Notes: a model not told the origin generated them from the letters alone. 64,000 nt of DNA from an uncultured delta proteobacterium (GCA_963802945.1 CAWDKY010000030.1:224001-288000), one strand, 5' to 3'. Positions 28,707 through 44,888 are shown, counted from the stretch's first letter. Program-made: numbers and translations.

Positions 28707-29339
28707 ATGATCCAATCGACAAATCGAAGGGCAAAAAAAATTATTGTTGTGATCCTGGGGCTGGTTGCCGCCCTAGGCCTGACCTTTTGGTTGAAGTGGG
28801 TATCCGCGGAAACCAGGTCCCTCAAAAACGATAGAACTATCGAATCCAAGGGGAACCTTGATAGGGCTTTCGAAACAGTCCGAAAGGTGCTCCAGAGTCC
28901 CCGTTGTCAGAACTGTCATATCCCGGGAGATGCCCCACTCCAGGGTGATCTCGGTAAAGTCCATGTTATGGATGTTAAACGGGGGGAAGACGGTCGAGGG
29001 AAGACGGACTTGCGGTGCACCGACTGCCATCAAAGTAAAAATGGAAGCCTGCCTCATACACCGCCGGGTGCCGTTGATTGGCGTTTACCCTCCCCTTCCA
29101 CTCCCATGGTTTTTATCAAGCTGTCGGCCAATGAATTGTGCAGTAATTTGAAGAACCCCGCCAAGAATGGGGGAAAAACGCCCGGCCAATTGATAGATCA
29201 TATCTCTAAAGACCGATTGGTTCTCTGGGGATGGGCCCCCGGGCCGGGCAGGAAAAAGCCGCCTGTCTCCCATAAGGAATTTGTGGCTGCTTTTTCTAAA
29301 TGGGTGCGTGCCGGTATGCCCTGTCCAAAAAACCGTTAA
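28707..29339 (+). CDS. Exported diheme c-type cytochrome-like protein
   Basis: N-terminal hydrophobic segment; two CxxCH motifs (CQNCH, CTDCH). Confidence 0.75.
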
Positions 29340-29382
29340 CGTTTTAGGAAATGGGGTTTTTGTTTTTGGGGAAAAAAGGAAT

Positions 29383-29938
29383 ATGGATTTTGATTTAACC
29401 GTTATCCCTGCCGAGAGAATTGAGCAGGCCATTTTTCTGATTCGTGGACTTCGGGTTATGATTGACGCCGACCTAGCTATGCTTTATGGAGTGACAACGA
29501 AGGTCCTCAATCAGGCTGTCAAACGCAACAAGGATCGTTTTCGGGAGATTTCATGTTTCAACTGACTGCGGAAGAAAAAATGGAGGCGGTCACAAATTGT
29601 GACCACCTTTCCCGGCTTCGCTTTTCACCAGTCCTCCCTTATGCCTTTACCGAGCATGGCGTCCTTATGCTTGCCAATATTTTAAACTCGGACCGCGCTG
29701 CGCGGGTTAGTGTTCAATTGTCCGTACCTTGGTACGATTGCGAGAAACATTGTCCACCCATGCTGATCTGGCCAGAAAAATCACCGAGATGGAAAAGAAG
29801 TATGATGCTCAGTTCAAAGTGGTTTTTGACGCCTTGCGGGCCTTAATGGCTCCGCCACTGAAAACGAAACGAAAGATCGGCTTTGATCTCAAGGAAAAAC
29901 AGGCACGATACAGCACAAAGAAACCTTCGCGAAAATAG
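29383..29938 (+). pseudogene. ORF6N (KilA-N-like) DNA-binding protein, two frameshifts
   Basis: [32 protein letters not shown] and EKKYDAQFKVVF...KIGF spread over three frames. Confidence 0.88.
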
Positions 29939-30091
29939 GAGGTGTTGACTTTAACTGTTTGTTGTTTACCCTCGAAGTACCGCAACGTATGCAACAACGC
30001 CCCCCATGTCAACCTAATTTGGTTTTGTATCAGCATCCTCCTTTTATATTTTATGTAGACTCTTGACACAGGATACGTTATAAGGCCCGCC

Positions 30092-31039
30092 ATGAGTTTG
30101 ACGACAAAATTTATCATATTTCAGGCCATGATTATTGTGCCTTTTGTCCTTGGGTCATTGACCAAGGAACGCTTTTCCAATCAGACCGGTTTTAGCAAGA
30201 AGCTCGTCAGGATAAACCTTATCTGCATTGAGCCTTTAATCGTGCTCTGGAGCATTTGGGGAATCTCGCTCAAAAGTAATCTTGTGTTCTTACCCGTATT
30301 CGGCCTGGCTTTTGTCCTTACAGGAATGGCGATAGGGAAGATTTTTATCCCTGTTCTTGGCCTCTCAGGAAAGAAAAAAGCTACCTTTCTCATCAGTTCA
30401 TCTCTGGCTAATCACGGGTTCACCATGGGTGGTTTTCTGTGCTATCTGCTTTTGGGCGAGAAAGGGCTCGGGCTTTCTTTCATATTCATCTCCTACTTTA
30501 TGCCCTACATATTCCTGGTCATATTTCCATATGCATCACTGGCCTCGACGCCTGCCCGATATGATAGGCGATTTGTCAAAGATTTTTTTACCAACATTCA
30601 GAACATGCCATTATATGTATTTTTCTTTGCCCTGGCTCTTCAGGGGTGCGGACTTAAAAGGCCGGAAATATTTTTCCCCATTGACATCCTGCTTATGATC
30701 GCTATTGCCTTGTATCATTTTTCCCTTGGCATCAATTTTGAGTTTAAAGAAGTCCTCTCTTCCTGTAAAGAAAATACAGCACTCGGCCTGATTAAATTTT
30801 TTATCATTCCCATGATCACCTTCCTGGTATTACGATGGGTAGCCATTGATCCTCAGATAGAGGGAGTGATCATGCTTCAATCATTTATGCCTACGGCCGT
30901 TTATTCAGTGATGGCCCCTGTGCTCTATGATCTTGATGCCAAGCTGGCCTCATCTATGTTTGTGGTCAATACGCTCATTTTCCTCATGGTCGTGCTGCCG
31001 ATAGTATTCATGCTCAAAACAAGCCTATTAGGAATGTAG
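30092..31039 (+). CDS. AEC (auxin efflux carrier/MTP) family transporter
   Basis: About 10 hydrophobic segments; N.G..G and IKFFIIP...MPTAV motifs. Confidence 0.8.
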   Translation: MSLTTKFIIFQAMIIVPFVLGSLTKERFSNQTGFSKKLVRINLICIEPLIVLWSIWGISLKSNLVFLPVFGLAFVLTGMAIGKIFIPVLGLSGKKKATFLISSSLANHGFTMGGFLCYLLLGEKGLGLSFIFISYFMPYIFLVIFPYASLASTPARYDRRFVKDFFTNIQNMPLYVFFFALALQGCGLKRPEIFFPIDILLMIAIALYHFSLGINFEFKEVLSSCKENTALGLIKFFIIPMITFLVLRWVAIDPQIEGVIMLQSFMPTAVYSVMAPVLYDLDAKLASSMFVVNTLIFLMVVLPIVFMLKTSLLGM

Positions 31040-31045
31040 AGGTAA

Positions 31046-31121
31046 TTCGGAAATTCCATATGGGGATTTAAGAATCTCCATGGAAAGGAAGCGGGACTGG
31101 ATGCAAAGGGATTCACCATGA
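31046..31121 (+). pseudogene. Probable C-terminal remnant of a RelE/HigB-type toxin
   Basis: SEIPYGDLRISMERKRDWMQRDSP*, with the stop overlapping the next ATG (ATGA). Confidence 0.45.
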
Positions 31122-31453
31122 AAAGAAAGACCAATTTTGATTTATACTTGGAAGAACAATTAAGAGATAAAGCCTTTGCCGCCCGTTTTAAAAAGGCCGG
31201 TGATGCCTGGGAGGTGGCCATGAAATTGGCCTCCCTGCGCAAAAAATCAGGTTTATCCCAAAAAGAATTGGCCGAAAAAGTGGGAACATCCCAACAACAA
31301 ATCAGCCGTCTGGAATCGCCGTCTTACGAAGGCCATTCTTTAAGCATGTTGCGGCGCGTGACTGAGGCTCTGGGCGGAACGATTCATTTAGAGATTTATT
31401 ACAAAAAGCAAACAAAGCCTTTGGCAGCGGCTGAAAGGAAAACACCTTACTGA
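31118..31453 (+). CDS. XRE-family HTH protein (HigA-like antitoxin)
   Basis: LRKKSGLSQKELAEKVGTSQQQISRLE. Confidence 0.88.
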   Translation: MKRKTNFDLYLEEQLRDKAFAARFKKAGDAWEVAMKLASLRKKSGLSQKELAEKVGTSQQQISRLESPSYEGHSLSMLRRVTEALGGTIHLEIYYKKQTKPLAAAERKTPY

Positions 31454-31508
31454 AAAAGTTGAACTCCCTCCCGGACAATCAGTATAAAAGAGTCATAATC
31501 CCAAGAGG

Positions 31509-31615
31509 ATTGAAAGATTTCCGGAAAATTTTATGTTTTTCAGGCCGCCAAGGGTGAAATGGAATCTTCTTTGAAATCACAATTGGTGATTTCAAGTTAA
31601 GCAAAAGCGAAAATA
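31509..31615 (+). pseudogene. Internal plus 3'-end remnant of an ORF6N paralog
   Basis: IERFPENFMF..., palindrome encoding LKSQLVISS, then gcgaaaatag as at the ends of other paralogs. Confidence 0.75.
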
Positions 31616-31900
31616 GGAGTTGTTGACTTTAACCAATTGATATATTCTAAAGTATCCGTTCAAATGAAAGGCGAAGGAGTTTAACCCTTTGAATCCTCGA
31701 ATCCTTGGCTCTGCTCGGCTCAGCTCGCCGCAAGCCTTGAACCCTGTTTTTCTTGAGGCTGGCCTAGGAAGCAGTCCTCTAACACCCCCATTTCTTGAAA
31801 AAAGAAATGGGGGTTCGTTTTGAGGTGAATAATAAAAAGGAATAAATCAAAAATAATCGGACCATGGGAAACGATAAGTTGTTTTAGGACCAAGGTCCCC
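31616..31900 (+). repeat. Type-F leader module + shared terminator-like hairpin + tail ending aaggtcccc
   Basis: Homologous to 36400-36633 and 39842-40137. Confidence 0.85.
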
Positions 31901-31944
31901 TTCAACTATGAATTCAAAAACCATTTGGAGCAAGGAGGAAGGTA

Positions 31945-33495
31945 ATGAGTAAGCAGGCAGCTCTTAATGAGCTAAAAAGGCGTAAGGAAGTAACTCAGGC
32001 CTTAGGCGGACCAAAGGCCATTGAGAGGCACAGACAAAGAGGACATCTGACCGCCAGGGAGCGGCTTGATAAATTGCTGGATAAGGGATCATGGCGGGAG
32101 ATAGGAGAACTCGAGCAGTTTGTCGGACCGGATGGTCAGGAATATCATGTCAATAAAATTCACGGATACGGCAAAATAAACGGTCGGATTGTCATCGTTC
32201 AGACTGATGACAGTACCATTCTGGCAGGGACAGGAGCCCCTAGTGTGTCAGGCCTGTCGCGGAAGAAAGGTCTTCACGACGATTTGCTGCCGGAAAGAAA
32301 CTTCCCTTATATCAGGCTCGGTGAGAGCGGTGGTGTGCATCTACAAAGCGTCATGGGCTCCACCGGCGTGCTGGCTATAACCTACCCGGCCACGAGGTTA
32401 CTCTATCCGCGACGCGTACCCAGGGTAACCGGTATTATGGGTTTATGTTTCGGAGACCCAACCTGGCAAGCCTCCATATCCGACTTTGTGGTACAGGTTA
32501 AAGGGACCTGCATGGCTGTTTCCGGTCCACGCGTCTTGGAAGTGGCCTTAAGTGAAAAGATCTCCCCCGAAGAGCTGGGCGGCTGGAAGCTGCACGCGGA
32601 AGTGACCGGACAGGTGGATGCCTTTGCTGAGGACGATGAACACTGCCTGCAGATCATCCGGGAATATTTATCCTACATGCCCTCCCATTGCGATGAGGAG
32701 CCGCCCTACGTGACAACGGAGGATCCACCTGACCGCAAAACTGAAAAATTGATGGATATTATTCCGGATGTGTCCACCAGGGCTTATGACATGACCAGGG
32801 TAATCAAGGATATGGTGGATGACGGGAAAATTTTTATCCTGAAGCCCTTTTTCGGCAAAGCCCTTATCACCTGCCTGGCCCGCATGAACGGTCGAGTGGT
32901 AGGCATTCTGGCCAACCAGGTCCTTTATAATGTGGGTGCGGCCGGGGATCAGGAATGTGAAAAAGCCACCAGTTTTATAGTCCTTTGCGATTCCTTCAAT
33001 ATTCCGATCATCAATTTGTCGGACACCCCCGGTTTTTTAGTCGGCAAGGAAGCTGAACGCAATAAAATTCCATCTATGATCATGAATTGGATGGAGGCCC
33101 TGGCCCTGGCCACTGTGCCCAAGATCACGGTCATTATCCGTAAGGCCTACGGTATGGGTATTTCCAATATGGGCGGCCCGAACTGCGGGGCCGACTTTAT
33201 CGCCGCCTTGACCACGGCTGAAATAAGTTTCATGTCTCCGGAAGCGGCGGCCAACGTGGTTTGGGAGCGAAAAATCGCTGAGGCTGAAGATCCGGAAAGG
33301 GAAAGAAAAAGACTGATCGAAGAAATGCAATACGGGAGTGCTCCCTGGCAGGCCGCTACTGACGGTTGGCTGGACGAGGTATTGGATCCCAGAGATTTGC
33401 GGACCTGGGTAATCGAGCGGCTGGAAATCATGCACAGCCGTAAAAATGGTTTTATGAGTCAGAAGAAATTGCAGGATTGGCCAACCGGCTTTTAA
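31945..33495 (+). CDS. Acyl-CoA carboxylase beta / carboxyltransferase
   Basis: LTARERLDKLLD, EELGG..LH, LSDTPGFLVG and IIRKAYG motifs. Confidence 0.9.
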   Translation: MSKQAALNELKRRKEVTQALGGPKAIERHRQRGHLTARERLDKLLDKGSWREIGELEQFVGPDGQEYHVNKIHGYGKINGRIVIVQTDDSTILAGTGAPSVSGLSRKKGLHDDLLPERNFPYIRLGESGGVHLQSVMGSTGVLAITYPATRLLYPRRVPRVTGIMGLCFGDPTWQASISDFVVQVKGTCMAVSGPRVLEVALSEKISPEELGGWKLHAEVTGQVDAFAEDDEHCLQIIREYLSYMPSHCDEEPPYVTTEDPPDRKTEKLMDIIPDVSTRAYDMTRVIKDMVDDGKIFILKPFFGKALITCLARMNGRVVGILANQVLYNVGAAGDQECEKATSFIVLCDSFNIPIINLSDTPGFLVGKEAERNKIPSMIMNWMEALALATVPKITVIIRKAYGMGISNMGGPNCGADFIAALTTAEISFMSPEAAANVVWERKIAEAEDPERERKRLIEEMQYGSAPWQAATDGWLDEVLDPRDLRTWVIERLEIMHSRKNGFMSQKKLQDWPTGF

Positions 33496-33586
33496 ATGAA
33501 TCCGCAAAGACTGAAGTCGTCGGCGTCTGGCCGATCGATCTCAGAAGATCCAGTTAATTACACGGAATCATCGTAGGAGGAGACAC

Positions 33587-34534
33587 ATGGAAAAACGCAA
33601 ACTGGGAAATTCGGGATTGGAGATTGCCCCATTGGTTTTAGGTGGCAACGTATTCGGCTGGACTGCAGATGAATCCATGTCCTTTAAAATTATGGATGCC
33701 TTCATCGCGGCAGGATTCAACCTCATTGATACGGCGGATGTCTATTCGCTGTGGGTTCCCGGTCATAAGGGCGGGGAGTCCGAAGCCGTTATTGGCAAGT
33801 GGCTGAAACAAAGAGGGAAAAGGACGGATGTGCTCATTGCCACCAAAGTCGGGATGCCGATGGGACCCGATAAGAAAGGATTATCGAAAGCCTATATTAG
33901 ACGCGCCGTGGAAGATTCGCTCCAACGCCTGCAGACGGATTATATCGATCTCTATCAGTCGCATACCGATGACCAGGACGCCCCCCAGGAAGAAACTTTA
34001 ATTACTTATACACAACTGATCAAAGAAGGGAAGGTGAGGGCGATTGGCGCTTCGAATCACAGCGCAGAAAGGCTGGCCCGGGCACTGCAGATCAGTGAAG
34101 AGCATGGATTGGCCGCCCATCAGACTTTACAGCCTCTTTATAACCTCTATGACCGGGCCGGATTCGAAAAGGATCTCGATCCCCTCTGCCGTGAAAAAGG
34201 TCTGGGTGTGATCAGCTACTATTCATTGGCCAGCGGATTTCTCACGGGCAAGTACCGATCGGAAAAGGATTTTACGAAAAGCCCCCGGGGACAGGGGATG
34301 AAACGTTTTCTTAATGACCGGGGATACAGGATTCTGGAGGCACTGGATCAAGTGGCCGGCCAGTATGGCGCTACTCCCGCGACCGTGTCGCTGGCCTGGA
34401 TGCTCAAAAAGCCCGGCCTGACGGCCCCGATTGCCAGCGCCACTAGTCTGGAACAATTGAGCGAATTACTTAAAGCCCCTGGGCTTGATCTTGATAAGAA
34501 TTCGATTGAATTGTTGAACCAGGCCAGTTCCTGA
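33587..34534 (+). CDS. Aldo/keto reductase
   Basis: IDTADVY, LIATKVG, SLQRLQTDYIDLY and IGASN motifs. Confidence 0.93.
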   Translation: MEKRKLGNSGLEIAPLVLGGNVFGWTADESMSFKIMDAFIAAGFNLIDTADVYSLWVPGHKGGESEAVIGKWLKQRGKRTDVLIATKVGMPMGPDKKGLSKAYIRRAVEDSLQRLQTDYIDLYQSHTDDQDAPQEETLITYTQLIKEGKVRAIGASNHSAERLARALQISEEHGLAAHQTLQPLYNLYDRAGFEKDLDPLCREKGLGVISYYSLASGFLTGKYRSEKDFTKSPRGQGMKRFLNDRGYRILEALDQVAGQYGATPATVSLAWMLKKPGLTAPIASATSLEQLSELLKAPGLDLDKNSIELLNQASS

Positions 34535-34547
34535 CCTCAGGTCCCGT

Positions 34548-34580
34548 TTTGATCTCGAAGAGAAACAAGCCCGGTATGGC
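34548..34580 (+). pseudogene. 3' remnant of an ORF6N paralog
   Basis: tttgatctcgaagagaaacaagcccggtatggc = FDLEEKQARYG. Confidence 0.7.
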
Positions 34581-34694
34581 TTTTCCCTAACATCTTATCA
34601 CTGACATCTTCCTCTGCTTTTTATCCTAAGGGATATCAGTCAGTTATTCACTAACATCTTTTTACTGATATCTTCTTGCTCTTTATGCGGGGGG

Positions 34695-35048
34695 TTGACT
34701 TTAATTTTTAACAGGTTTAATAAGTTATATTACCTTAGCTTCATAACTATAAAGCGAATAGCCGTCAACAGGCCTAACCGCTGTTCGCCGAACAACGAAC
34801 GATCCGGCTTCCATTCGATCGGCTTTGCCGATCTCAGGGGGAGACTCCCTGAAGGGAGTCGGACAGGGAGCCTCTTTTGAAGCCCGGCATATCTGCTCCT
34901 AACTGGGAGCCTTTTCAAAAGCTCGACGAAGTCGAGCGGGTCCGGGCGGAACGAACTACGAACGACGAACGTTTTTAGTACCGAAAGGCGTCCATGAAGC
35001 AGTTCAACCAAACCCCATTTTTTTAAAAAAGAAATGGGGATTTTTTTT
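34695..35048 (+). ncRNA. Candidate structured leader RNA (type B) with promoter and terminator-like hairpin
   Basis: TTGACT-17 nt-TAATAA, gcttcata...aaagcgaatagcc, variable insert, ccgaaagg..ccatgaagc, ccccattt../..aaatgggg-T tract. Confidence 0.55.
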
Positions 35049-35069
35049 ACAATCTCTCATTGAGATCTT

Positions 35070-35612
35070 ATGGAATCTTTAGTGCCAGTGGAGGTTATTG
35101 AAAAGAAAATATTTTTGATTCGAGGTCAAAAAGTTTTGCTGGATAGAGATCTTGCTGATCTCTATGATGTGGAAACCAGGGCGTTGAACCAAGCGGTTCA
35201 ACGCAATATTAAGAGATTCCCGAATGATTTCATGTTTACTTTGACCAGAGAGGAGATCATGAGGATATCACAAATTGTGACATCCTCCGACATTAAATTC
35301 TCCAAACAAGTTCGTGCTTTTACGGAGCAAGGCGTGGCTATGCTTTCCGGAATCCTGAATAGCGATCGAGCGATAGAAGTGAATATTCAAATTATGCGGG
35401 CTTTTGTAAAACTCCGGGAGATGATCGCTACTAATAAAGACCTGGCCCGGCGGCTGGATAATCTGGAAAAGAAATATGACAGCCAGTTCAAAGTGGTCTT
35501 TGACGCCCTGCGGGCTTTAATGTCCCCGCCGGCCAAAACCAAACGTAAAATAGGTTTTGATTTAAAGGAGAAGCAGGCACGGTACGGCATAAAGAAATCT
35601 TCGCGAAAATAG
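35070..35612 (+). CDS. ORF6N domain (KilA-N-like) DNA-binding protein
   Basis: [42 protein letters not shown] and KRKIGF motifs. Confidence 0.92.
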   Translation: MESLVPVEVIEKKIFLIRGQKVLLDRDLADLYDVETRALNQAVQRNIKRFPNDFMFTLTREEIMRISQIVTSSDIKFSKQVRAFTEQGVAMLSGILNSDRAIEVNIQIMRAFVKLREMIATNKDLARRLDNLEKKYDSQFKVVFDALRALMSPPAKTKRKIGFDLKEKQARYGIKKSSRK

Positions 35613-35618
35613 GAGTTG

Positions 35619-35835
35619 TTGGCTTAACTGGTTAATAGGTTTATAAATAAATCACTTAAACCTGGCTTCATAAATATAAAGCGAATAGCCCTCAACAGTC
35701 AGCAGTCAGCCTAAGCCCTTTAGATTTTTCCTGACCGCCGATCGCTGATTACTGACAGCTCTAAACCAAAGGATCGTCCATGAAGCAGTCCCCCAAGACC
35801 CCATTTTTTAAAAGAGAAGATGGGGTTTTTGTTTG
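35619..35835 (+). ncRNA. Candidate type-B leader RNA copy
   Basis: ggcttcataaatataaagcgaatagcc...cagtcag heptamer stem...ccatgaagc plus hairpin. Confidence 0.55.
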
Positions 35836-35850
35836 CGGAGGAAATTCTAA

Positions 35851-36399
35851 ATGGATTCTATAATCCCAGTAGAAGTGATTGGACGAAAAATTTTATTGAT
35901 CCGCGGCCAAAAGGTGATGCTGGATGCCGATCTGGCAAAGCTTTACGGGGTGACAACCAAGAGATTGAATGAACAAGTTAGGCGGAATCAGGGACGATTT
36001 CCTGAAGATTTTATGTTCCAATTGAGCTCTGATGAAAAAGCTGAGGTGGTCGCAATTTGCGACCACCTTGCCAAACTTAGATTTTCCCCTACTCTCCCCC
36101 ATGCCTTCACTGAACATGGAGTTCTCATGGTTGCCAGTGTGCTTAATACCACAAAAGCTATTGAAATTAGCGTCTTCGTTGTACGGGCTTTCGTTAAAAT
36201 GCGGGAGATGGTTATCTCAAACAAAGAAATTGTCCGGCGGCTGGATAATCTGGAAAAGAAATATGACAGCCAGTTCAAAGTGGTCTTTGATGCCCTGCGG
36301 GCATTGATGGCCCCGCCACTGAAAACGAAACGAAAGATCGGCTTCGACCTCAAAGAAAAACAGGCACGGTACGCCATAAAGAAATCTTCGCGAAAATAG
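35851..36399 (+). CDS. ORF6N domain DNA-binding protein
   Basis: [35 protein letters not shown] and KRKIGF motifs. Confidence 0.92.
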   Translation: MDSIIPVEVIGRKILLIRGQKVMLDADLAKLYGVTTKRLNEQVRRNQGRFPEDFMFQLSSDEKAEVVAICDHLAKLRFSPTLPHAFTEHGVLMVASVLNTTKAIEISVFVVRAFVKMREMVISNKEIVRRLDNLEKKYDSQFKVVFDALRALMAPPLKTKRKIGFDLKEKQARYAIKKSSRK

Positions 36400-36633
36400 G
36401 AGTTGTTGACTTAAACTAATTGATATATTCTAAATTATCCGTTCAAATGAGACGCATAGGAGTTTAACCCTATGAATCCTCGAATCCTTGACTCTGCTCG
36501 GCTGAGCTCGCCGCAAGCCTTGAACCATATTTTTTTGAGGCTGGTCCATTTAGCAGTCCGACAAGACCCCATTTTTTGAAAAAGAAGATGGGGTTTTTAT
36601 TTGGAGGGAAGGTGACTCAGAAACAACGTCCCC
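36400..36633 (+). repeat. Type-F leader module + shared hairpin, ending aacgtcccc
   Basis: Near-identical to 39842-40045. Confidence 0.85.
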
Positions 36634-36693
36634 GCCGGCAGACTACAGAAAAAGATTGACAAAAAGATCAAATAAGTTATCATAATATTTATC

Positions 36694-36978
36694 ATGTTGA
36701 TTTCGTACAAACCGCCATCTAACAAATTTGTAAAAAAACAGGCTAGGTCGTTTCAACTGGTAATCGAAGACGAGGTCGAAGCCGTCATTCAAAATCCGTT
36801 AGCCGGAGAGACCAAGAAGGGTGATTTGACCGGTTTCAGGATTCATAAATTTTCTTTTCAGGGTCAAAAATTCCTCTTGTCTTATGTTATTCGAACCGAG
36901 GGAATCGTTTTTTTTACGATCGGCTCCCATGAAAATTTTTATCGGGAATTAAAAAAGTATTTAAAGGAGGTGGGTTAA
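36694..36978 (+). CDS. RelE/ParE-like toxin
   Basis: 94 aa; NP..GE.KKGDL.G.R.HKF and IGSHENFY motifs. Confidence 0.85.
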   Translation: MLISYKPPSNKFVKKQARSFQLVIEDEVEAVIQNPLAGETKKGDLTGFRIHKFSFQGQKFLLSYVIRTEGIVFFTIGSHENFYRELKKYLKEVG

Positions 36979-37287
36979 ATGATCACCGCCGAAAAAGTGT
37001 ATAAAGAAATTTTGGATATGCAGGTCAAGGAGAGAGAAAAACTCTTCACCGTTATTGCCAGGAAGGGTTTTGAGAAAGATTCCTATTCCCACGAAGAGGT
37101 TTTCGGCGATATACGGGAATCTCCCTTTATACTCAGAGAAGCCGCCGAATATCTGGAAGTGGCCGAAATAACCCTGAGGCGATGGGTGCAATCCGGTCTC
37201 ATTCCGTATGAAAAAGTTGGAAGGAATATCGTTTTCGATCCTGATGAACTGAGGCGGGTTAAGAAATCAAAGACGAAAAAAAGATAA
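36979..37287 (+). CDS. Excisionase/MerR-like HTH protein, probable antitoxin
   Basis: EAAEYLEVAEITLRRWVQSG.IP..KVG; directly abuts the toxin gene. Confidence 0.8.
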   Translation: MITAEKVYKEILDMQVKEREKLFTVIARKGFEKDSYSHEEVFGDIRESPFILREAAEYLEVAEITLRRWVQSGLIPYEKVGRNIVFDPDELRRVKKSKTKKR

Positions 37288-37357
37288 AAAGCCAATTATC
37301 AAAAAAAAGAAGTTATCACTTCATCCCCAATTTCTTAACAAAGCAGGCAAAACCTTA

Positions 37358-37426
37358 CCCGAAAGGCTGTCCATTAAGCAGTCCATCATGACCCCATTTT
37401 TTAAAAAAGAAGATGGGGTTTTGTTT
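37358..37426 (+). terminator. Copy of the shared hairpin module
   Basis: ccgaaaggctgtccattaagcagtcc...accccatttttt..aagatggggttttgttt. Confidence 0.8.
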
Positions 37427-37449
37427 AAATAATTTTAATTGAGGTTCCT

Positions 37450-37779
37450 ATGAATTCTTTAGTGCCGGTGGAGATTATTGAAAAGAAGATTTTTTTAATC
37501 CGTGGCCTTAAAGTGATACTGGACACTGATTTGGCAGAGCTTTATGGTGTTGAAACAAAATATCTAATTAAAGCGGTCAAGAGAAATCTTTTGCGGTTTC
37601 CTGATGATTTTATGTTCCAACTCAATAAAGAGGAATCTGAAAACTTGAGGTTCCATCTTGGCACCTCAAGTCAGTGGGGAGGACGGCGTTATTTTCCCTA
37701 TGCCTTTACCGAGCAGGGGGTGGCAATGCTTTCCAGCATCCTAAGCAGTGACCAGGCTGTCAAAGCGAATAGCCTTTAG
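37450..37779 (+). pseudogene. 3'-truncated ORF6N paralog
   Basis: ORF6N motifs run to ...SDQAVK, then the sequence switches to aaagcgaatagcc of the type-B leader. Confidence 0.88.
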
Positions 37780-37920
37780 CCTTCAGCAGTCAGCCTGAGC
37801 CCTTTAGGTTTTTCCTGACCGCCGATCGCTGATTGCTGACAGCTCTAAACCAAAGGATCGTCCATGAAGCAGTCCCCCAAAACCCCATTTTTCTAAAAAA
37901 GAAATGGGGGTTTTGTTTTG
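37762..37920 (+). repeat. 5'-truncated type-B leader + shared hairpin
   Basis: Near-identical to 35678-35835. Confidence 0.85.
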
Positions 37921-37999
37921 AAGTGGATAATAGAATGGGAGGCAGTCTTAAGATTGGGGCTTGATTTGTGATCCTATTTTGAGTACAATAGAACCCATT

Positions 38000-38596
38000 A
38001 TGAGTACGAAACAAATTCGCGATAATCTCTCCATGGCCCTTTTCGGCAAGACCAAACGAGCCTTGCTGGCCTTGTTTTTTTCCAACCCGGAGGAATCCTT
38101 TTACCTACGCCAGATTGCCAGGATAACCGCTGCCGGTCAGGGATCTGTTCAGCGAGAGTTAAAAAAATTAGCCGAGGCCGGCATCATCGAGCGTATTGAA
38201 CAGGGCCGACAGGTCTATTTCAGAGCCAAAAGTAACTGTCCCATTTTCGATGAGCTAAAGGGGCTGATATTAAAAACCGCCGGATTGGTGGAGGTGCTTC
38301 GATCCGCTTTATCGCCGGTGTCCGATAAGATCGATCTGGCTTTCGTATTTGGTAGTCAAGCCCGAGGGAAAGCCAAGGCTGCCAGTGACATTGATTTATT
38401 AATTGTCGGGAATGTCGATGAGCTTGAACTACATCGGTTGATCAGCCAGACAGAGGGGCAACTGAACCGCTCCATCAATTACACCTTTTTGACCGCTCAA
38501 GAGTTTAAAAAACGCAAAAAAGAAAAGGGGGGGTTTCTCTCAAGAGTCCTGGCAGGGGAGAAGATTTTCATTATAGGAGACGGGCATGGATCTTGA
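38000..38596 (+). CDS. Winged-HTH plus minimal nucleotidyltransferase (MNT) antitoxin
   Basis: N-terminal HTH (YLRQIARIT...VQRELKKL); FGSQARG....SDIDL = GS-x10-DxD. Confidence 0.9.
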   Translation: MSTKQIRDNLSMALFGKTKRALLALFFSNPEESFYLRQIARITAAGQGSVQRELKKLAEAGIIERIEQGRQVYFRAKSNCPIFDELKGLILKTAGLVEVLRSALSPVSDKIDLAFVFGSQARGKAKAASDIDLLIVGNVDELELHRLISQTEGQLNRSINYTFLTAQEFKKRKKEKGGFLSRVLAGEKIFIIGDGHGS

Positions 38597-39023
38597 GACA
38601 CTCCTCAAAGAGGGACGAGTTCATCAGGAAAAAATATCGTCTCAAGAGATCCATAGGGCCTTGGCTAGAGCGGAAAGGGATTTAAAAACAGCGAGAAAAA
38701 TAATGGCCGAGGACTGGGATTGGGGTTTCTCGATCACCTATAATGCCGTCCTCCAAGCTTCCCGGGCTTACATGTTTGCGCAGGGCTATCGCCCATCTCA
38801 TGGAGAAGGTCATAAAAATACTTTCGCCATCATGAAAATCTTCATGGGGAAAGAGTACGAGGACTTAATTTCCTATTTTGACCGCATGAGGAATAAACGA
38901 AATCAAGCTATTTATGATGTGGCCGGATTGATTACCGAAACGGAGGCCAGAAACCTATTTTCCAAAGCGACTGAATTTATAAAATTGATCCGCCGCAGTC
39001 TGACAGATAAAAATAGCGGCTAA
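38586..39023 (+). CDS. HEPN domain protein (toxin partner of MNT)
   Basis: AERDLKTA, YNAVLQASRA and RNQAIY; overlaps the MNT gene. Confidence 0.85.
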   Translation: MDLETLLKEGRVHQEKISSQEIHRALARAERDLKTARKIMAEDWDWGFSITYNAVLQASRAYMFAQGYRPSHGEGHKNTFAIMKIFMGKEYEDLISYFDRMRNKRNQAIYDVAGLITETEARNLFSKATEFIKLIRRSLTDKNSG

Positions 39024-39150
39024 TTTTTAGAACTTAGCTTTATTGATTCCGGCAAACTGTTAACTAAACCCTCAAACTTACTTGTTGCGGACACCACTAA
39101 TCATGAAAATAATTAATGGGGTTAACTGCCACGCCGTTCACTCCGCCTGC

Positions 39151-39270
39151 GGTCCTCGAATCCTCCTAAGCTCGTCGCAGGTCCTTGAATCCTGTTTTCC
39201 TGTTAAGACTGGTCCATGAAGCAGTCCGAAAAGCCCCCATTTTTTGAAAAAGAAGATGGGGATTTTTTAA
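39151..39270 (+). repeat. Partial type-F leader + shared hairpin
   Basis: cctcgaatcct...ctggtccatgaagcagtcc...cccccatttttt..aagatgggg. Confidence 0.8.
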
Positions 39271-39292
39271 CCAATCTCTCATTGAGGATCTT

Positions 39293-39865
39293 ATGGAATC
39301 TTTAGTGCTCGTTGAGATTATCGAGAAAAAAATTTTATTGATCCGCGGCCAAAAGGTGATGCTGGATGCCGATCTGGCAAAGCTTTACGGGGTGACAACC
39401 AAGAGATTGAATGAACAAGTTAGGCGGAATCAGGGACGATTTCCTGAAGATTTTATGTTCCAATTGAGTCTGATGAAAAAGCTGAGGTGGTCGCAATTTG
39501 CGACCACCTTGCCAAACTTAGATTTTCCCCTACTCTCCCCCATGCCTTCACTGAACATGGAGTCTCTCATGGTTGCCAGTGTGCTTAATACCACAAAAGC
39601 TATTGAAATTAGCGTCTTCGTTGTACGGGCTTTCGTTAAAATGCGGGAGATGGTTGTGTCAAACAAAGAAATTGTCCGGCGGCTGGATAATCTGGAAAAG
39701 AAATATGATTCCCAGTTTAAAGTGGTCTTTGACGCCCTGCGGGCTTTAATGTCCCAGCCAATAAAGCCTAAGCGAAAAATTGGTTTTGACTTGAAAGAGA
39801 AGCAGGCCCGATACAGCATAAAGAAATCTTCGCGAAAGGAGGAGTTGTTGACTTTAACTAATTAA
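39293..39865 (+). CDS. ORF6N protein, near-copy of 35851..36399 with two compensating indels
   Basis: -1 at gagtctg and +1 at gagtctctc shift about 30 codons. Confidence 0.85.
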   Translation: MESLVLVEIIEKKILLIRGQKVMLDADLAKLYGVTTKRLNEQVRRNQGRFPEDFMFQLSLMKKLRWSQFATTLPNLDFPLLSPMPSLNMESLMVASVLNTTKAIEISVFVVRAFVKMREMVVSNKEIVRRLDNLEKKYDSQFKVVFDALRALMSQPIKPKRKIGFDLKEKQARYSIKKSSRKEELLTLTN

Positions 39866-40195
39866 TATATTCTAAATTATCCGTTCAAATGAGATGCATA
39901 GGAGTTTAACCCCATGAATCCTCGAATCCTTGACTCTGCTCGGCTGAGCTCGCCGCAAGCCTTGAACCCTGTTTTTTTTGAGTCTGGTCCATGAAGCAGT
40001 CCCCCAAAACCCCATTTTAAAAAAAAGATGGGGGTTTTGTTTTGGCGTGGATGATAAAAGAGAGTAGAATGCTTGGGTCAAATCAAAAACAATCGGACAA
40101 ATGGGGAGAAATAAGTTGTTTTAGAACCAACGTCCCCTCTTAATGAAGCAACCGCACTAGGCCCCATTTTAAAAGAAGATAGGTTTTTGTTTTGG
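39842..40195 (+). repeat. Type-F leader + hairpin + tail to aacgtcccc, then a degenerate second hairpin
   Basis: Homologous to 31616-31900; the degenerate hairpin is at 40143-40192. Confidence 0.8.
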
Positions 40196-40258
40196 TTAAG
40201 GACAAAATTTAAACTGTTTCAGACCTGACTTCCCCCTTTACAGTTTATAATACAGGCC

Positions 40259-41089
40259 ATGATAGAAACCATCTTGGTGGGCAAGGTAGATGAATCCTTT
40301 CTTCTGGAGGTCCAAAAATGGGCGGAAGAGGTTGTTGGGAAAACCGAGCCCGGGACGGTCCCGGATCGTATTTCCGTTTACCTCTGGGAGAATGGAAACG
40401 ATTTTAAGGAATTTGATGCCCGAGAAAAAGCCGAGTTGGGGGTAGTCACCGGTGATGAATCCAACTTTCTGGCCACCCACGAGGCCTGGAGGGGTTACCC
40501 TAGGATTCATATATCCCTGGAAAAGATCCAGGGAATTCCTGAAGAAGTCATCCAGGGCGTAGTTCAACATGAGATCGGCCACGCCCTGGTCCATGGTAAG
40601 CCGGAATTTTATCAATTTCTTTTTTCCGAACTGCTTCAGGAAACCGCTAGGTCGGCGGGACTGGATCTACCCCAGCTCCAGCAGTTGGTTTATTTGCTTT
40701 CCGTGGCTCTGAAAGACGAAGAAGTGGTCAGGCTATTAAGTGAAAGGGGATTAGGAATTTACCAAAATCGGGTACTGGAATATTTAATAGAAGATACGGG
40801 GGAGGAGCAACAGACTTGGGAACTGATTAAGGATATGCCGGCTCTGAGAAAATTAGCCTGGGCCGCTTTTTCAAAAACCCTTCTGCCGATTGAAACTTTG
40901 GCCGGATTGGGCGATCCGGAATCCAGTCCTCTGATAGAGCAATGGGAGAAGGCCTATTCCTGGCTCACCAACCGGGAAAGGACCGACCTAAGGGCTTATG
41001 CGCGGTTGGTCATTGAATTGCCCTCTAAAAATTTCCAGGATCGATTGGAACAAGCCGTCTTGAGATTGATCAACAGCGCTTCACTATGA
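40259..41089 (+). CDS. Hypothetical protein with HExxH (possible zinc metallopeptidase)
   Basis: VVQHEIGHALVH with a downstream D/E cluster. Confidence 0.6.
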   Translation: MIETILVGKVDESFLLEVQKWAEEVVGKTEPGTVPDRISVYLWENGNDFKEFDAREKAELGVVTGDESNFLATHEAWRGYPRIHISLEKIQGIPEEVIQGVVQHEIGHALVHGKPEFYQFLFSELLQETARSAGLDLPQLQQLVYLLSVALKDEEVVRLLSERGLGIYQNRVLEYLIEDTGEEQQTWELIKDMPALRKLAWAAFSKTLLPIETLAGLGDPESSPLIEQWEKAYSWLTNRERTDLRAYARLVIELPSKNFQDRLEQAVLRLINSASL

Positions 41090-41208
41090 AATGAACTGGA
41101 ACTCTGTGTATATCTGAGAGTTGACCCAGGCCCGATATGGCATAAGGAAAGTACGGGGAGTTGGAAAGCGGTTGGTTTAATTAGTATAGCGTCTCCGTAC
41201 TTCCATTC

Positions 41209-41691
41209 TTAGTATCCCAATTCCTTTAATATTGAAGAAAGTCTTTGTAATCGCTCGCTGAGTAGTTCATCATCATTGCTTAACGCTTGCTGAAATAATT
41301 TTATATCCTCATCTATTTTGGGGTTGTCTGTACATACTGCTATTGTCATGGAATCGCCTTGCAGACCGACTCTGTCAATTACTGTTTTTTCAGAATCATA
41401 AAGTTTTGTATGACGATAAGCCTCTGAAGCAAAATACTGTTTTGCTCTGCAAACAAAAATTGCAAGATCAAGCACACGGTGAAGGGGTAATTCTTCAGAT
41501 TGCCTTGACCACTTTTCACCTGTATGTCTCCAAACTTTTGCTGAGATATCAACGTTCCCCCTGTCATTCCATTGAGCCAAGCCTAATGAAAGCCCCTTGG
41601 CATCGGTCTTGTAAGCATATCGGCCATCAACATTTTCGTAATTTTCAGAAACAATAACAGGTTTATGTTTTAATATTGCTGGTATTTTCAT
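41209..41691 (-). CDS. Conserved hypothetical protein (DUF6530-like)
   Basis: MKIP..LKHKPVI..NYE.VDG...GLAQWN..ISAKVWR..KWSRQSEELP recalled from memory; AT-rich. Confidence 0.65.
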   Translation of the reverse strand: MKIPAILKHKPVIVSENYENVDGRYAYKTDAKGLSLGLAQWNDRGNVDISAKVWRHTGEKWSRQSEELPLHRVLDLAIFVCRAKQYFASEAYRHTKLYDSEKTVIDRVGLQGDSMTIAVCTDNPKIDEDIKLFQQALSNDDELLSERLQRLSSILKELGY

Positions 41692-41835
41692 AATTTTAAT
41701 ATTCCTTTATGTAGTTATTTACTTGTGTAGTCAACTAATAGTTTAGTAAATAACTTATCATACTAATAACAAACCTGTCAAGCAAAAAAGTAATTGACTA
41801 TTTTTAGGTTGCTCCCAAAAACAATTCCCTTGGGG

Positions 41836-42063
41836 TTGACTTTAATTTTTAATAGGTTTAAATAAGTTATATTAACTTGGCTTCATAAACATAAAGCAAA
41901 TAGCCTTCAGTATTCAGCAATTAGCCTGGATGTTTTTAAGGTTTCTTTGAACACCGAACTCTGAACGCTGAACGCCGAACGTTCCCAGAACCGAAAGGCT
42001 AGCCCATGAAGCAGTCCCCCAAGACCCCATTTTTTTGAAAAAGGAGATGGGGTTTTTGTTTTG
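41836..42063 (+). ncRNA. Candidate type-B leader RNA copy
   Basis: TTGACT-17-TAAATA; gcttcat/atgaagc and tagcctt/aaggcta pairings; terminator-like hairpin. Confidence 0.55.
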
Positions 42064-42360
42064 GGGCGGAAGCAGGGCCATTTACTTGAATGATTTTTTA
42101 GTTGGGAAATAAGGGTTGGGGTTCGACCATAGACAGCCCTATTTTCATGTCCCGGCTTCCGATCCGCTCGGTCCGCTCGACCTGGCCGACTAGTGGTGTC
42201 AAGACCTGCCTTGTGCAGGCATACGCCCCTGGCGGGGCATGACTGTTCAAAAGGCAATTTAGTCAGCAGCGTCCGGGACAGCAAGGAATCCGGCATTTTG
42301 TTTACATTTAAGATTTGCCCCCTGGATCTATGAAAGTCAACCCAATTAAGGGAGGGAAAA

Positions 42361-42798
42361 ATGGAAAAATTGACCTTTGAATTCGTGAATCCGGGGGATG
42401 TCCTTCCTCCATTCATCCGATCCGTCAGTCAGGAAACCTTTTGGAAATACGCCGTGGCCTCTTTCGATTATAACCCTGTCCACAATGATCCTGAATGGGT
42501 CAAAACGGCCCAACCCTTTAAAATACCTTTTACGGTGGGGCATGGTATGATGACTATGTCTTTTATGACCTCTCTGGTTACCAACTGGGCCTTACCGTCC
42601 ATGCTTCAGGTTCGGAAGATTGTTTCTAAATTTACTCGGCCGGTTGAGCAGGGATGGGAAATTATCTGCACCGGAGTTGTCTCGGAAAAGCACTTTATCG
42701 CCAAAGGGAAAAACTATGTGGTGGTGGATGTCAAAGCTGAAAATCGGCAGGGTGACTTGCTGGCCCTCAGTGAAATCGAAGTGGTCTTTCCCGATTGA
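42361..42798 (+). CDS. MaoC-like (hot-dog) dehydratase
   Basis: YAVASFDYNPVHND...GHGM and F.RPV..G motifs. Confidence 0.88.
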   Translation: MEKLTFEFVNPGDVLPPFIRSVSQETFWKYAVASFDYNPVHNDPEWVKTAQPFKIPFTVGHGMMTMSFMTSLVTNWALPSMLQVRKIVSKFTRPVEQGWEIICTGVVSEKHFIAKGKNYVVVDVKAENRQGDLLALSEIEVVFPD

Positions 42799-42855
42799 GA
42801 CCGGGGGTTTTATCGATTGGATCAATTTCGAGATTCAAAGAAAGGAGAATGAACC

Positions 42856-43434
42856 ATGAGTCATGCCGATTTAGCCAAATATTTCAAAACAGAAAAGCAG
42901 CTCAAATTCAGCACCGATTTTTTTACCGATGCCGAAAACTATGAAGTTTGGGATGAAATTGATTTTTCCGATCTACAAGAAGTTGACGGTGAAAACACCT
43001 TTGAAATAAAGGCCGAAGACATCAAATTTTACGCCGAAGGAGGCCTTGACGACAACCCGCTGATGAATGACGAGGAATACGCCAAGAAATCATCCTACGG
43101 CGGGCTGGTGGCCCACCCGATTTTTATAACCTCCATCTGTTTTTGGTGTGTGGGCGTCAAGGGGAAGGGAAATTGGATCAGAACGCCCGGGGCGAGAAAC
43201 CCTGGTCAGGTTTTGGAAATCTATGAATATTTCAAAGTCGGAGAAACCATTCATGTAACAATGAAGCCCCATGACCGCTATATCAAACGGGGTAAATGTT
43301 ATCTCCAGTATCAAATGAACGCCTTTAACCAGGATAATGTTTTGAAATGCAGAATGTTTGCCACCCTGATCCTGCCTCGGACACGCCAGGATATAGGGAA
43401 ATTTCTTAAAGGCATCCGCGGTCTAAGTGATTAG
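42856..43434 (+). CDS. MaoC/FAS1-like dehydratase partner subunit
   Basis: IKFYAE..LDDNPL..DEEYAKKS.YGGLVAHP. Confidence 0.8.
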   Translation: MSHADLAKYFKTEKQLKFSTDFFTDAENYEVWDEIDFSDLQEVDGENTFEIKAEDIKFYAEGGLDDNPLMNDEEYAKKSSYGGLVAHPIFITSICFWCVGVKGKGNWIRTPGARNPGQVLEIYEYFKVGETIHVTMKPHDRYIKRGKCYLQYQMNAFNQDNVLKCRMFATLILPRTRQDIGKFLKGIRGLSD

Positions 43435-43442
43435 CCAAGAAA

Positions 43443-43508
43443 CCGGAAGGATGGTCCTTGAAGCATCCTATAATACCCTATTTTTTGAAAAAGAAGATGA
43501 GGTTTTTT
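43443..43508 (+). terminator. Degenerate copy of the shared hairpin module
   Basis: ccggaagg..gtccttgaagca...accctattttttgaaaaagaagatgaggtttttt. Confidence 0.7.
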
Positions 43509-43509
43509 A

Positions 43510-43644
43510 GTCACAATTGGATGATGAGATTCCAATTTGGAATACCAAAAACGAGCGATGAACCAGTCGCAATTTGCGACCGGTTCCAAAAATAAGATTA
43601 GCCTGGGAGTTTGAGTCTTTGAGATCACAAATTGTGATCTCAAA
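43510..43644. repeat. Intergenic cluster of ORF6N-type palindromes
   Basis: attccaatttggaat (43529), gaaccagtcgcaatttgcgaccggttc (43560), tttgagatcacaaattgtgatctcaaa (43618), plus half-site gtcacaattg (43510). Confidence 0.85.
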
Positions 43645-43688
43645 ATTAAAAGGGGATTAGTTAAAGAAGTCATTTGAAGAGGATCTTG

Positions 43689-44255
43689 ATGGAAAAAAAG
43701 GAGTTAATCCCGCAGGAAATCATTGAGGGCAAAATCTTCCTTATCAGAGGTAAAAAGGTCATGCTCGATCGGGATCTGGCTGTTCTTTATGGAGTTGAGA
43801 CAAAGGTCATAAACCAGGCGGTCAAAAGAAATTCTCAAAGGTTTCCAGAGGATTTTATGTTCCAGTTGTCCACTGAGGAGACTCAGCAATTTTTAAGGTC
43901 ACAATTTGTGACCTTAAAAAGAGGACAGCATTACAAATACTTACCTTATGTTTTTACAGAGAATGGTGTGGCCATGCTCTCCAGTGTCCTTAATACCGAG
44001 AGGGCAATCCAGGTCAATATTCAAATCATGCGAACCTTTACCCGGTTAAGGGAGATCATCGCCACTCATAAAGATTTGGCGCGGCGTCTGGATGACCTGG
44101 AGAAAAAGTACGATAGCCAGTTCAAAGTGGTCTTTGACGCCCTGCGGGCTTTAATGGCCCCTCCTGTTAAGCCAAAACGAAAAATAGGTTTTGATCTCAA
44201 GGAGAAACGGGCACGGTATTCCATAAAAGGTGTTCAACGGGAGAAAAGGAAGTAA
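43689..44255 (+). CDS. ORF6N domain DNA-binding protein
   Basis: [41 protein letters not shown] and KRKIGF motifs. Confidence 0.92.
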
Positions 44256-44312
44256 CGTTTTCTTCTGCTTTTCCACCGCCATCTTGCCACTAACACCTTT
44301 ATTCGGGAGGGA

Positions 44313-44502
44313 TTGACTTTAATTTTTAATAGGTTTAAATAAGTTATATTAACTTGGCTTCATAAAGATAAAGCGAATAGCCAACCGTTGATCGCCGAAC
44401 GACGAACTACGAACGACAAACGTTTTTAGTACCGAAAGGCCGATCCATGAAGCAACCTACCAAGACCCCATTTTTTGAAAAAGAAGATGGGGTTTTTGTT
44501 TT
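44313..44502 (+). ncRNA. Candidate type-B leader RNA copy
   Basis: Same promoter, gcttcata..aaagcgaatagcc, cgaacga heptamers, ccatgaagc and hairpin. Confidence 0.55.
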
Positions 44503-44577
44503 GGGTTTGCTGATAAAAGAGAGCATTATTTTTGTTATAAAATAAATGGGCGCTGTCCCTATTTAAAACCGAAAAAA

Positions 44578-44826: not shown

Positions 44827-44888
44827 GGTTCAAAAAATTATCCTATTAAGAGTATCTAAACAAACACAAGAAGCCATGCCAACAATGA

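Follow-up and report, generated by a model that had tools for sequence, protein, structure and literature searches.

An in-frame palindrome in ORF6N genes covaries with the predicted DNA-reading helix of the encoded protein

We analyzed a stretch of 64 kb from the genome of an uncultured delta proteobacterium (contig C30, nucleotides 224001-288000; hereafter the window, with positions counted from its first nucleotide), which contains several genes of the ORF6N family (PF10543). The assembly comprises 4.37 Mb in 72 contigs with a G+C content of 47%. The genes carry a palindrome at a homologous position within their coding sequence; this feature is real, and it is under constraint at the DNA level. 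Because the in-frame site of 27 bases changes in step with the DNA-reading helix of the protein, an ORF6N gene most likely encodes a DNA-binding protein together with its own docking site. We consider it likely that the palindrome is bound, as double-stranded DNA, by the ORF6N protein of the same gene. We infer physical binding by a dimer and, with less confidence, a role of this binding in self-repression or in self-marking similar to that of BstA and its aba element.

Palindromes in the ORF6N genes

A scan of the whole 64 kb for inverted repeats (arms of at least 10 nucleotides, at most one mismatch, loop of at most 3) found 24 of them, nine belonging to the ORF6N class. An earlier, sequence-only reading of the window had listed seven palindromes in ORF6N genes. 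All seven were recovered, and each is located between the motifs FMF(Q/T)L and (A/V)FTE of a PF10543 gene or remnant, as described there. In the following, genes are named by their first nucleotide; all of them are on the plus strand.

The reference for residue numbering is the intact gene at 43689-44255, which encodes 188 amino acids from the ATG at 43689 (the open reading frame, ORF, is open from a TTG at 43674) and matches PF10543 with an E-value (E) of 5e-35. Its site at 43890-43920 codes for F68-K77. The palindrome had been called perfect over 31 bp, and the scan indeed gave 15+1+15 with GTCACAATTTGTGAC as the central 15-mer. The 35070 gene contains a site with 13-bp arms and one mismatch (35261-35287), whose half-sites ATCACAA and GTCACAA are asymmetric at base 7, counted from the centre. 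The site of the 35851 gene (36044-36068) is a perfect 12+1+12 palindrome with the central 15-mer GTCGCAATTTGCGAC and is identical to the site at 39485-39509 in the 39293 copy. The remaining sites have one mismatch each: 37643-37671 in the 37450 gene (13-bp arms, 3-nt centre, half-sites GTTCCA and GTGCCA), 29584-29608 in the 29383 pseudogene (12-bp arms, central 15-mer GTCACAAATTGTGAC) and 31571-31595 in the remnant at 31503-31640 (12-bp arms). Over the 4.37 Mb of the genome, 29 perfect 15-mers of the core pattern were counted versus 7 in the reversed, non-complemented genome, so the palindromes exceed chance.

Constraint at the DNA level

Relatives were obtained by scanning one genome per species, and the best 80 of 597 (49-71% identical) were used. 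They belong to Nitrospirota, Chloroflexota, Planctomycetota, Omnitrophota, Acidobacteriota, Verrucomicrobiota, Patescibacteria, Bacteroidota, several proteobacterial groups and one archaeal bin. The 27-bp site is retained in about ten phyla, on viral contigs and on plasmids of cultured bacteria; all six plasmid genes (37-53% identity) carry the palindrome at the homologous place, and cultured carriers include Sulfuricurvum kujiense DSM 16994 (pSULKU03) and Butyrivibrio proteoclasticus B316.

The segment from FMF to FTE was resampled synonymously, 200 times for each of 84 gene rows. Two of these rows had picked the same paralog (35851) through overlapping flanks, and four of the 80 loci (L004, L045, L050 and L079; L numbers denote loci of relatives) lacked the motif and were excluded. 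The mean best palindrome score was 12.2 for the real genes versus 4.9 after resampling. In this comparison with synonymous-shuffled controls, which the sequence-only reading had proposed, the real palindrome beat all 200 resamples in 75 of the 84 rows, and at most two of 200 reached its score in 79. The symmetry does not simply follow from the amino acid sequence.

Pairing in 86 centre-anchored palindromes defines the extent of the site. Watson-Crick pairing reaches 95-100% at bases 2-6 and 92-100% at bases 8-12, with lower values at base 1 (76%), base 7 (78%) and base 13 (85%); the next four positions give 40, 56, 17 and 23%. Because pairing drops to background beyond base 13, the unit is 13+1+13 = 27 bp. 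The core reads T-N-N-C-A-A-W-T-T-G-N-N-A with bases 1-3 and 6 nearly fixed, and several compensated pair types occur at each of the bases 4, 5, 7, 8, 10 and 11. It had been noted that the arms differ among paralogs and yet stay complementary; accordingly, bases 4, 5 and 7-13 vary with compensation. This compensation crosses the genetic code: the synonymous arginine codons AGG and AGA pair with threonine ACC and isoleucine ATC, respectively, on the opposite arm. Furthermore, the core is read in two frames, as R-S-Q-(I/F)-V-T or as V-(T/A)-(N/I)-C-D. A possible route of such a frame switch is illustrated by the 39293 copy, which differs from the 35851 gene by a natural pair of -1 and +1 indels. 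Resampling, compensated changes with an effect on the amino acids and the reading of one core in two frames all bear out the proposal that the constraint acts on the nucleic acid. As had also been claimed, the segment is the most variable part of the protein in the family alignment (A1).

In the loci of the relatives (257.7 kb) we counted 72 in-gene palindromes and 29 of the same class that were recorded as not in-gene, versus 23 for all other centres; some of the 29 sit in neighbouring ORF6N copies or in loci without a called gene. Nine sites lie at most 160 nt upstream of seven called genes in the 80 loci, and most genes have the internal site only. Some ORF6N genes contain two or three different palindromes in tandem (contig C53 at 87032 and 87066; L040, L051, L057 and L064). 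No second conserved palindrome was found elsewhere in the 80 genes, where 18 others with a score of at least 8 are located at scattered places.

Predicted structure of the ORF6N protein

The AlphaFold2 (AF2) model of the 43689 protein has a mean predicted local distance difference test score (pLDDT) of 83.5. It comprises helices at residues 27-34 and 38-47, a strand at 57-59, a helix at 62-72, a low-confidence loop at 73-86, a strand at 87-90 and long C-terminal helices at 104-187. Long C-terminal helices are a feature of the ORF6N proteins (180-193 amino acids). Helix 38-47, encoded by nucleotides 43800-43829, is the predicted DNA-reading helix. Mapped on the model, as had been suggested, the palindrome covers the terminal residues of helix 62-72 and the beginning of the low-confidence loop (pLDDT of 57 for the block 71-80).

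Residues 23-105 of the model align with MerR-like winged-helix proteins (pSK1 Par, PDB-entry 8csh, Z = 5.0; RacA, 5i41, Z = 4.3; MerR, 3gpv) and with the KilA-N/APSES fold (Mbp1, 1bm8). In these superpositions helix 38-47 takes the place of the second helix of the helix-turn-helix (HTH). The best Z-score of a wide VIA-align search was 6.5, which is in a commonly met range. A sequence-profile search of the PDB gave no hits at E up to 1, and a Foldseek search of the PDB gave no match at E of at most 0.001, the best being Ski/Dachshund domains with E of about 0.1. Modeling two copies of the protein (alignment A3) resulted in a score of 0.24 versus a mark of 0.42, which is neutral for or against a dimer.

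A code between helix and site

The relation between helix and site was analyzed in a cleaned set of 80 genes from genomes, 78 of which have a site. Residue 43 sorts the sites with hardly an exception: Gln occurs with TCACAA, Glu with TCGCAA, Lys with TTCCAA, Arg with T(G/A/T)CCAA and Leu with TTTCAA. The corresponding rule for base 4 (Q = A, E = G, K or R = C, L = T) fits both half-sites in 77 of the 78 genes, and the pairings agree with the known base preferences of these side chains. The rule is valid in both frames, since it also covers second-frame genes with Glu (L049, L060 and the 35851 gene), Gln (L027 and the gene on contig C27) and Arg (L069). A held-out set of 80 loci from viral contigs contained 73 with the motif, 30 of them distinct; here the rule fits all 27 distinct genes with a site. 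On the plasmids, five of the six genes obey it on both half-sites, and one half-site of the Butyrivibrio gene departs from it. Two of these five, the distant family members L164 (Treponema saccharophilum pTS1) and L166 (a 4.1-kb plasmid of Segatella copri), carry a new compensated change at base 3, which is otherwise nearly fixed (TCGAAA/TTTCGA and TCAAAA/TTTTGA); their residues E43 and Q43 nevertheless agree with base 4.

Base 7 is related to residue 39. Within the Gln class, base 7 is G in all 70 half-sites of Lys39 genes in the genome set and in 17 of 18 in the viral set, and Arg39 takes A or G. Asymmetry at base 7 was observed in 1 of 44 sites with Lys39, 11 of 33 with Arg39, 8 of 13 with Gly39 and 4 of 6 with Ser39.

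The corrected mutual information with base 4 (1.50 bits) is 1.31 bits for residue 43, 1.09 for residue 40 and 0.67 for residue 44. In contrast, the variable columns scored between helix and site (residues 46-70) share at most 0.09 bit with it. On a tree built from the remaining protein columns the helix classes require 31 changes versus a shuffled mean of 32.0. Since the intervening columns carry no signal and the classes are scattered on the tree, a class is not inherited in one block. Helix and site, about 90 nt apart, stay matched although the intervening and surrounding sequence shows no such signal, and we therefore read the match as selection on a protein-DNA contact. Covariation of residues 39, 40, 43 and 44 with bases 7, 5 and 4 of the site in the same gene fits the intragenic operator that the sequence-only reading had offered as one possibility.

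That reading had added that the palindrome might also encode the specificity residues. For the inner bases this finds no support, as the residues that read them are encoded some 30 codons upstream of the site. In the case of the outer bases 8-13, the corresponding arrangement would be a loop from or just after the palindrome (residues 68-84) that contacts these bases, so that a change in an arm alters the site and its reader in one step; we regard it as doubtful. The outer bases do covary best with residues 70-84, a relation to which adjacency and shared descent can equally give rise. If true, the arrangement would be a self-referential specificity switch.

Proposed mechanism

Based on the covariation and the predicted structure we propose the following mode of action. 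The ORF6N protein, with its N-terminal winged-helix-like domain and long C-terminal helices, would most likely bind in the form of a symmetric dimer. Helix 38-47 of either subunit would enter the major groove of one 13-bp half-site, where residues 39, 40, 43 and 44 (i, i+1, i+4 and i+5, on one face of the helix) would read bases 7 to 4. The site lies over codons 68-77, i.e. at the end of a helix and in a floppy loop, where the protein accommodates almost every sequence, additional copies of the site and even a shifted frame. As helix and site travel in one gene of 0.55 kb, they remain matched when the gene is transferred horizontally. Within a genome, the paralogs retain distinct helix/site classes.

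With respect to function, our first choice would be self-limiting repression, in which the bound protein acts as a roadblock about 215 nt into the gene and which would work wherever the gene lands. The second choice would be a mark of 'self' like the aba element of BstA.

Several observations weigh against binding of a dimer to its own site. Five of the 84 rows have no clear palindrome (L047, L048, L062, L072 and L080), and L011 breaks the base-4 rule, being the only exception in the genome set. A tree-aware independent-pairs test is underpowered, with one to four pairs per trait on well-supported branches; all changing pairs go in the expected direction, and the sign test gives p of at least 0.25. 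Among the extra sites near genes in the 80 loci, 5 of 11 are of the same or a compatible class and 6 of 11 of a different one. The likeness to the MerR-like and KilA-N folds is weak, as Z-scores of 4.0-5.0 are common in VIA-align. Finally, the outer bases 8-13 remain symmetric although they vary, and this is not accounted for by any residue beyond the variable segment. They vary freely, stay paired in 85-100% of the sites and covary with no distant column, for which a stem is the simpler account.

Alternative explanations

Such a stem would be a DNA stem-loop or an extruded cruciform, for example in single-stranded DNA during replication or transfer, that is read by one subunit and whose outer arms serve for pairing only. 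The helix would still read duplex DNA in the stem, and the code described above is compatible with this arrangement. However, bases 1-3 by the centre are complementary in both frames (76%, 98% and 100%), and the loop of a hairpin could not pair them. The arm length stops sharply at 13, and the long C-terminal helices suggest an oligomer. Mismatches at base 7 are not random, as wear of a stem would be, but nearly confined to sites with permissive residues at position 39. Tolerance of a mismatch where the reader is permissive therefore fits two half-sites on a linear duplex rather than the stability of a stem. The 1032 pairs at bases 2-13 include 13 G·T and 20 A·C pairs, so wobble pairs are not in excess. 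Taken together, the lack of G·T enrichment and the reader-dependent asymmetry favour double-stranded DNA read by a dimer over a hairpin of RNA or DNA, and we consider the stem unlikely. For the same two reasons, wobble pairs that are not enriched and a mismatch tolerance that depends on the reading residue, the hairpin recombination substrate named in the sequence-only reading found no support. A two-fold symmetric site with bases that covary with the residues of a recognition helix, as for a dimeric HTH repressor, is what was found.

An mRNA hairpin in the coding region, controlling translation, stability or cleavage by RNase III, would account for a long stem with compensated changes in a transcribed region. 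RNA stems normally contain many G·U and few A·C pairs, contrary to the numbers given above. Copies of the same class are also located in non-coding DNA up- and downstream of the genes, and an Rfam search of 28000-46000 gave no matches at E up to 0.1. Thus, neither tolerance of G·U nor a known RNA family points to a structured RNA, and a hairpin in the message does not account for residues 39, 40, 43 and 44 predicting the bases of the stem. This explanation is very unlikely.

Alternatively, the palindrome might be a point of recombination or cassette exchange at which N- and C-terminal halves of the genes are shuffled. The helix/site classes are scattered on the tree of the remaining protein, paralogs share their 3' parts (about 80-85% identity) and differ in their 5' parts, and in the remnant at 31503-31640 the palindrome is followed, after about 11 nt, by a deletion joint. 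This is a single joint, however, and the genes are not linked to a recombinase, their neighbours being toxin-antitoxin and metabolic genes. Moreover, the blocks of high identity lie at least about 170 nt beyond the palindrome (e.g. 44082-44227 for the site at 43890-43920). The swappable cassette proposed earlier thus gains no direct support from these 3' stretches, and exchange at the palindrome has, in our judgement, hardly any probability.

Least credible of all is a functionless palindrome that maintains itself by template switching during replication, in which a change in one arm is copied to the other: this process is known to perfect quasi-palindromes, and the pseudogenes and the remnant in the window do keep good palindromes, but it accounts neither for the coupling to residues encoded about 90 nt upstream nor for fixed 13-bp arms across about ten phyla, a core conserved in two frames or extra copies clustered by ORF6N genes.

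Comparison with known systems

In PADLOC, the ORF6N proteins matched the PDC-S05 models only. The three intact ORF6N proteins match all three of these models with E-values from 1e-38 to 1e-61; for the model PDLC04856 the values are 1e-61 (43689 gene), 2e-55 and 3e-54. PDC-S05 is a label for a candidate single-gene phage defence. With one representative, T7 and T5 plated about 1000-fold less well on E. coli B according to the preprint that describes it (10.1101/2024.09.26.614923); as presented there it has a RhuM domain, whereas the ORF6N proteins have no RhuM Pfam hit. The parts of PADLOC and of this preprint that deal with PDC-S05 do not mention the palindrome. Because the family is a candidate anti-phage family, the site, if indeed bound, may be the key to the discrimination between self and invader.

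Among described systems, BstA and its aba element come closest. In the account of Owen et al. (2021, PMC8585504), BstA is an anti-phage protein with a KilA-N-like N-terminal DNA-binding domain, and an element that overlaps its own gene acts as DNA; each BstA homolog has its own cognate element. The aba element described in that article is 63 bp long, spans the gene start (29 bp upstream and 34 bp coding) and has terminal direct CCCGCC repeats. The ORF6N element differs from this description in being a palindrome centred about 215 nt into the gene. BstA is prophage-borne and, with 307 amino acids and a second domain, is set apart from the ORF6N proteins of 180-193 residues by description; direct binding of BstA to aba is not demonstrated in that article either.

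A palindrome inside ORF6N genes was not found to be described in a literature search, with subscription journals and bioRxiv supplements outside its reach. Sites within the gene of their own binding protein are known from the iterons of the lambda origin in gene O and from parS in parB/spo0J. As in ORF6N genes, a cis site is located in the coding sequence of its own binder, at a place where the protein is permissive. The lambda and parS sites function in the replication or partition of a replicon, whereas the ORF6N gene stands alone on chromosomes, in viruses or on plasmids. The ORF6N site is furthermore one 27-bp palindrome (sometimes two or three in tandem), the bases of which track the reading helix across specificity classes. 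The Rickettsia palindromic elements, which are in-frame insertions into genes, resemble it insofar as palindromic DNA is tolerated inside coding sequence. Unlike these mobile repeats, which land in unrelated genes, the ORF6N palindrome has a single homologous position in a single family and matches the helix of the protein concerned.

If binding is confirmed, the family would represent a natural library of matched pairs of a reading helix and a 27-bp site over many phyla, with a simple rule that leads from residue 43 to base 4 and from residue 39 to base 7. It would also provide a case of a DNA site that overrides protein-coding constraint, forces amino-acid changes and survives a change of frame, and a possible general answer to how a mobile single gene keeps a site for control or self-recognition wherever it is inserted. 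What the window contributes is a genome of at least five specificity classes, in which non-self sites are stacked before one paralog, a hint of a paralog network.

ORF6N copies in the window and the genome

Between 28.5 and 44.3 kb the window contains three intact ORF6N genes, one truncated gene, two broken copies, one remnant and one orphan 3' end. A profile search of the genome found four further genes on contigs C12, C27 and C53, and the PF10543 matches in the whole genome amount to 11. All scores are above the curated cut-off of 27.8 bits: 103.8-120 bits for the intact genes, 113.5 for the truncated one and 56.5 and 77.1 for the broken copies. Paralogs of this genome are about 80-85% identical in the 3' part of the gene, up to 92% in the flanks and about 70% in the 5' part. 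At least five helix classes are present (K/V/Q, R/A/Q, K/R/E, K/Y/K or G/N/K, and G/N/R). Among the sequencing runs screened, none contained half or more of the sampled words (best share 0.19, and 0.04 for the single RNA run).

The 43689 gene belongs to the class K39/V40/Q43/A44. The second intact gene (35070-35612, 180 amino acids, reading-helix codons 35175-35204) is of the class R39/A40/Q43/A44, and the third (35851-36399, 182 amino acids, helix codons 35956-35985) of the class K39/R40/E43/Q44, with the second frame across its site (EVVAICDHL). Both were identified by ORF calling and matches to PF10543 and PDC-S05. Two more palindromes with arms of 10-11 are located within the 35070 gene, at 35143-35165 and at 35181-35204; the latter spans the codons of the reading helix (ALNQAVQR). 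Relatives do not conserve them, and they are probably due to chance.

The truncated gene (37450-37779; class K39/Y40/K43) encodes 109 residues and retains the N-terminal domain only. Its 3' half is deleted and the downstream flank is joined directly at 37762. The 39293 copy (39293-39865) is a recent duplicate of the 35851 gene, with 88.7% identity to 35851-36399 over 839 nt. An indel of -1 nt and one of +1 nt, 95 nt apart, flank the intact palindrome and are the sole differences from the 35851 gene around the site. Because these indels bracket the site, about 33 residues are out of the original frame and the AFTEHG strand is lost; the copy is probably a pseudogene. On the minus strand, a T-run follows the palindromes at 36044-36068 and 39485-39509, which a simple scan calls terminator-like, and antisense transcripts could be stopped there.

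The 29383 pseudogene (29383-29938) consists of three overlapping ORF pieces separated by two frameshifts, and its PF10543 match includes an internal stop. It is of the second-frame type (EAVTNCDHL) with the helix residues K39/V40/Q43. The remnant at 31503-31640, recognized by six-frame translation, comprises about 12 codons (KRIERFPENFMF), the palindrome and, directly following, the last codons of the gene, to whose 3' end homology resumes at 31607. Both ends of the gene body are deleted. The orphan 3' end of a further copy at 28530-28599 was identified from its ORF translation and is 84% identical to 44187-44256.

Additional sites outside genes

Three palindromes of the same class that had not been listed before are located in the 160 non-coding nucleotides before the 43689 gene. 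The site at 43618-43644 (27 bp, central 15-mer ATCACAAATTGTGAT), 45 nt upstream of the ATG, is of the type expected for the R39/Q43 paralog 35070 and shares 14 of 15 bases with that gene's own site, ATCACAAATTGTGA. The sole sigma-70-like match in 43380-43720, a weak one to the consensus, overlaps it. The 15-mer at the centre of the 27-bp site at 43560-43586, GTCGCAATTTGCGAC, is identical to that of the in-gene site of the K39/E43 paralog 35851. The perfect 15-mer at 43529-43543, ATTCCAATTTGGAAT, is of the Lys43 type and matches the own site of a K-class paralog on contig C53 (82923), ATTCCAA.TTGGAAT. None of the three is of the class of the 43689 gene itself (GTCACAA).

Altogether, three ORF6N genes of this genome have upstream sites. 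The gene on contig C12 has one of the 35851 type about 75 nt upstream, and the second gene on contig C53 has one about 120 nt upstream. The sites of other classes before the 43689 gene and the 35851-type site before the C12 gene therefore suggest wiring, i.e. cross-control, between the paralogs, as judged from the sequence.

Orphan sites are present on contigs C12 and C14. Orphan or unmatched sites include C14 31353-31381, C17 328887-328901 and C53 86749-86763; one of them is a hybrid with the half-sites GTCGCAA and GTCACAA, and two are of the classes ATTGCAA and ATCGCAA without a matching paralog in the assembly.

Flanking repeats and neighbouring genes

A repeat of about 60 nt with the consensus ..GGTCCATGAAGCAGTCC..CCCCATTTTTTGAAAAAGAAGATGGGGTTTTT brackets every ORF6N gene of the window and has the orientation of the gene. 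A repeat search located it at 31768-31840, 34984-35048, 35768-35834, 36538-36602, 37362-37426, 37852-37918, 39205-39266, 39987-40042, 41995-42061, 43442-43507 and 44436-44501. Of the 20 copies in the genome, 12 lie no more than 400 nt from an ORF6N gene. The end of the repeat resembles a terminator: a hairpin, whose G·U pairs occur on the plus strand only, precedes a T-run. The repeat may be the terminator and promoter region of the unit or a handle for recombination. We dropped, without disproving it, the idea that the repeats are attC sites of an integron cassette array, as they resemble intrinsic terminators; an integrase was not searched for.

The neighbouring genes include ParE-like/HTH and nucleotidyltransferase/HEPN pairs, an HTH_3 gene, DUF6530, a carboxyl transferase, an aldo-keto reductase, MaoC and a CoA-transferase. 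The segments 36694-37287 and 37961-39023 between ORF6N copies encode a ParE-like toxin plus its HTH_17 partner and a nucleotidyltransferase/HEPN pair, and with these toxin-antitoxin-type pairs the stretch resembles an accessory or defence islet. The CoA-transferase family III gene at 27219-28420 is present as two overlapping ORFs (27219-27719 and 27674-28420). Its Pfam match covers only profile positions 185-366 and is located in the second ORF, and the split may reflect a frameshift.

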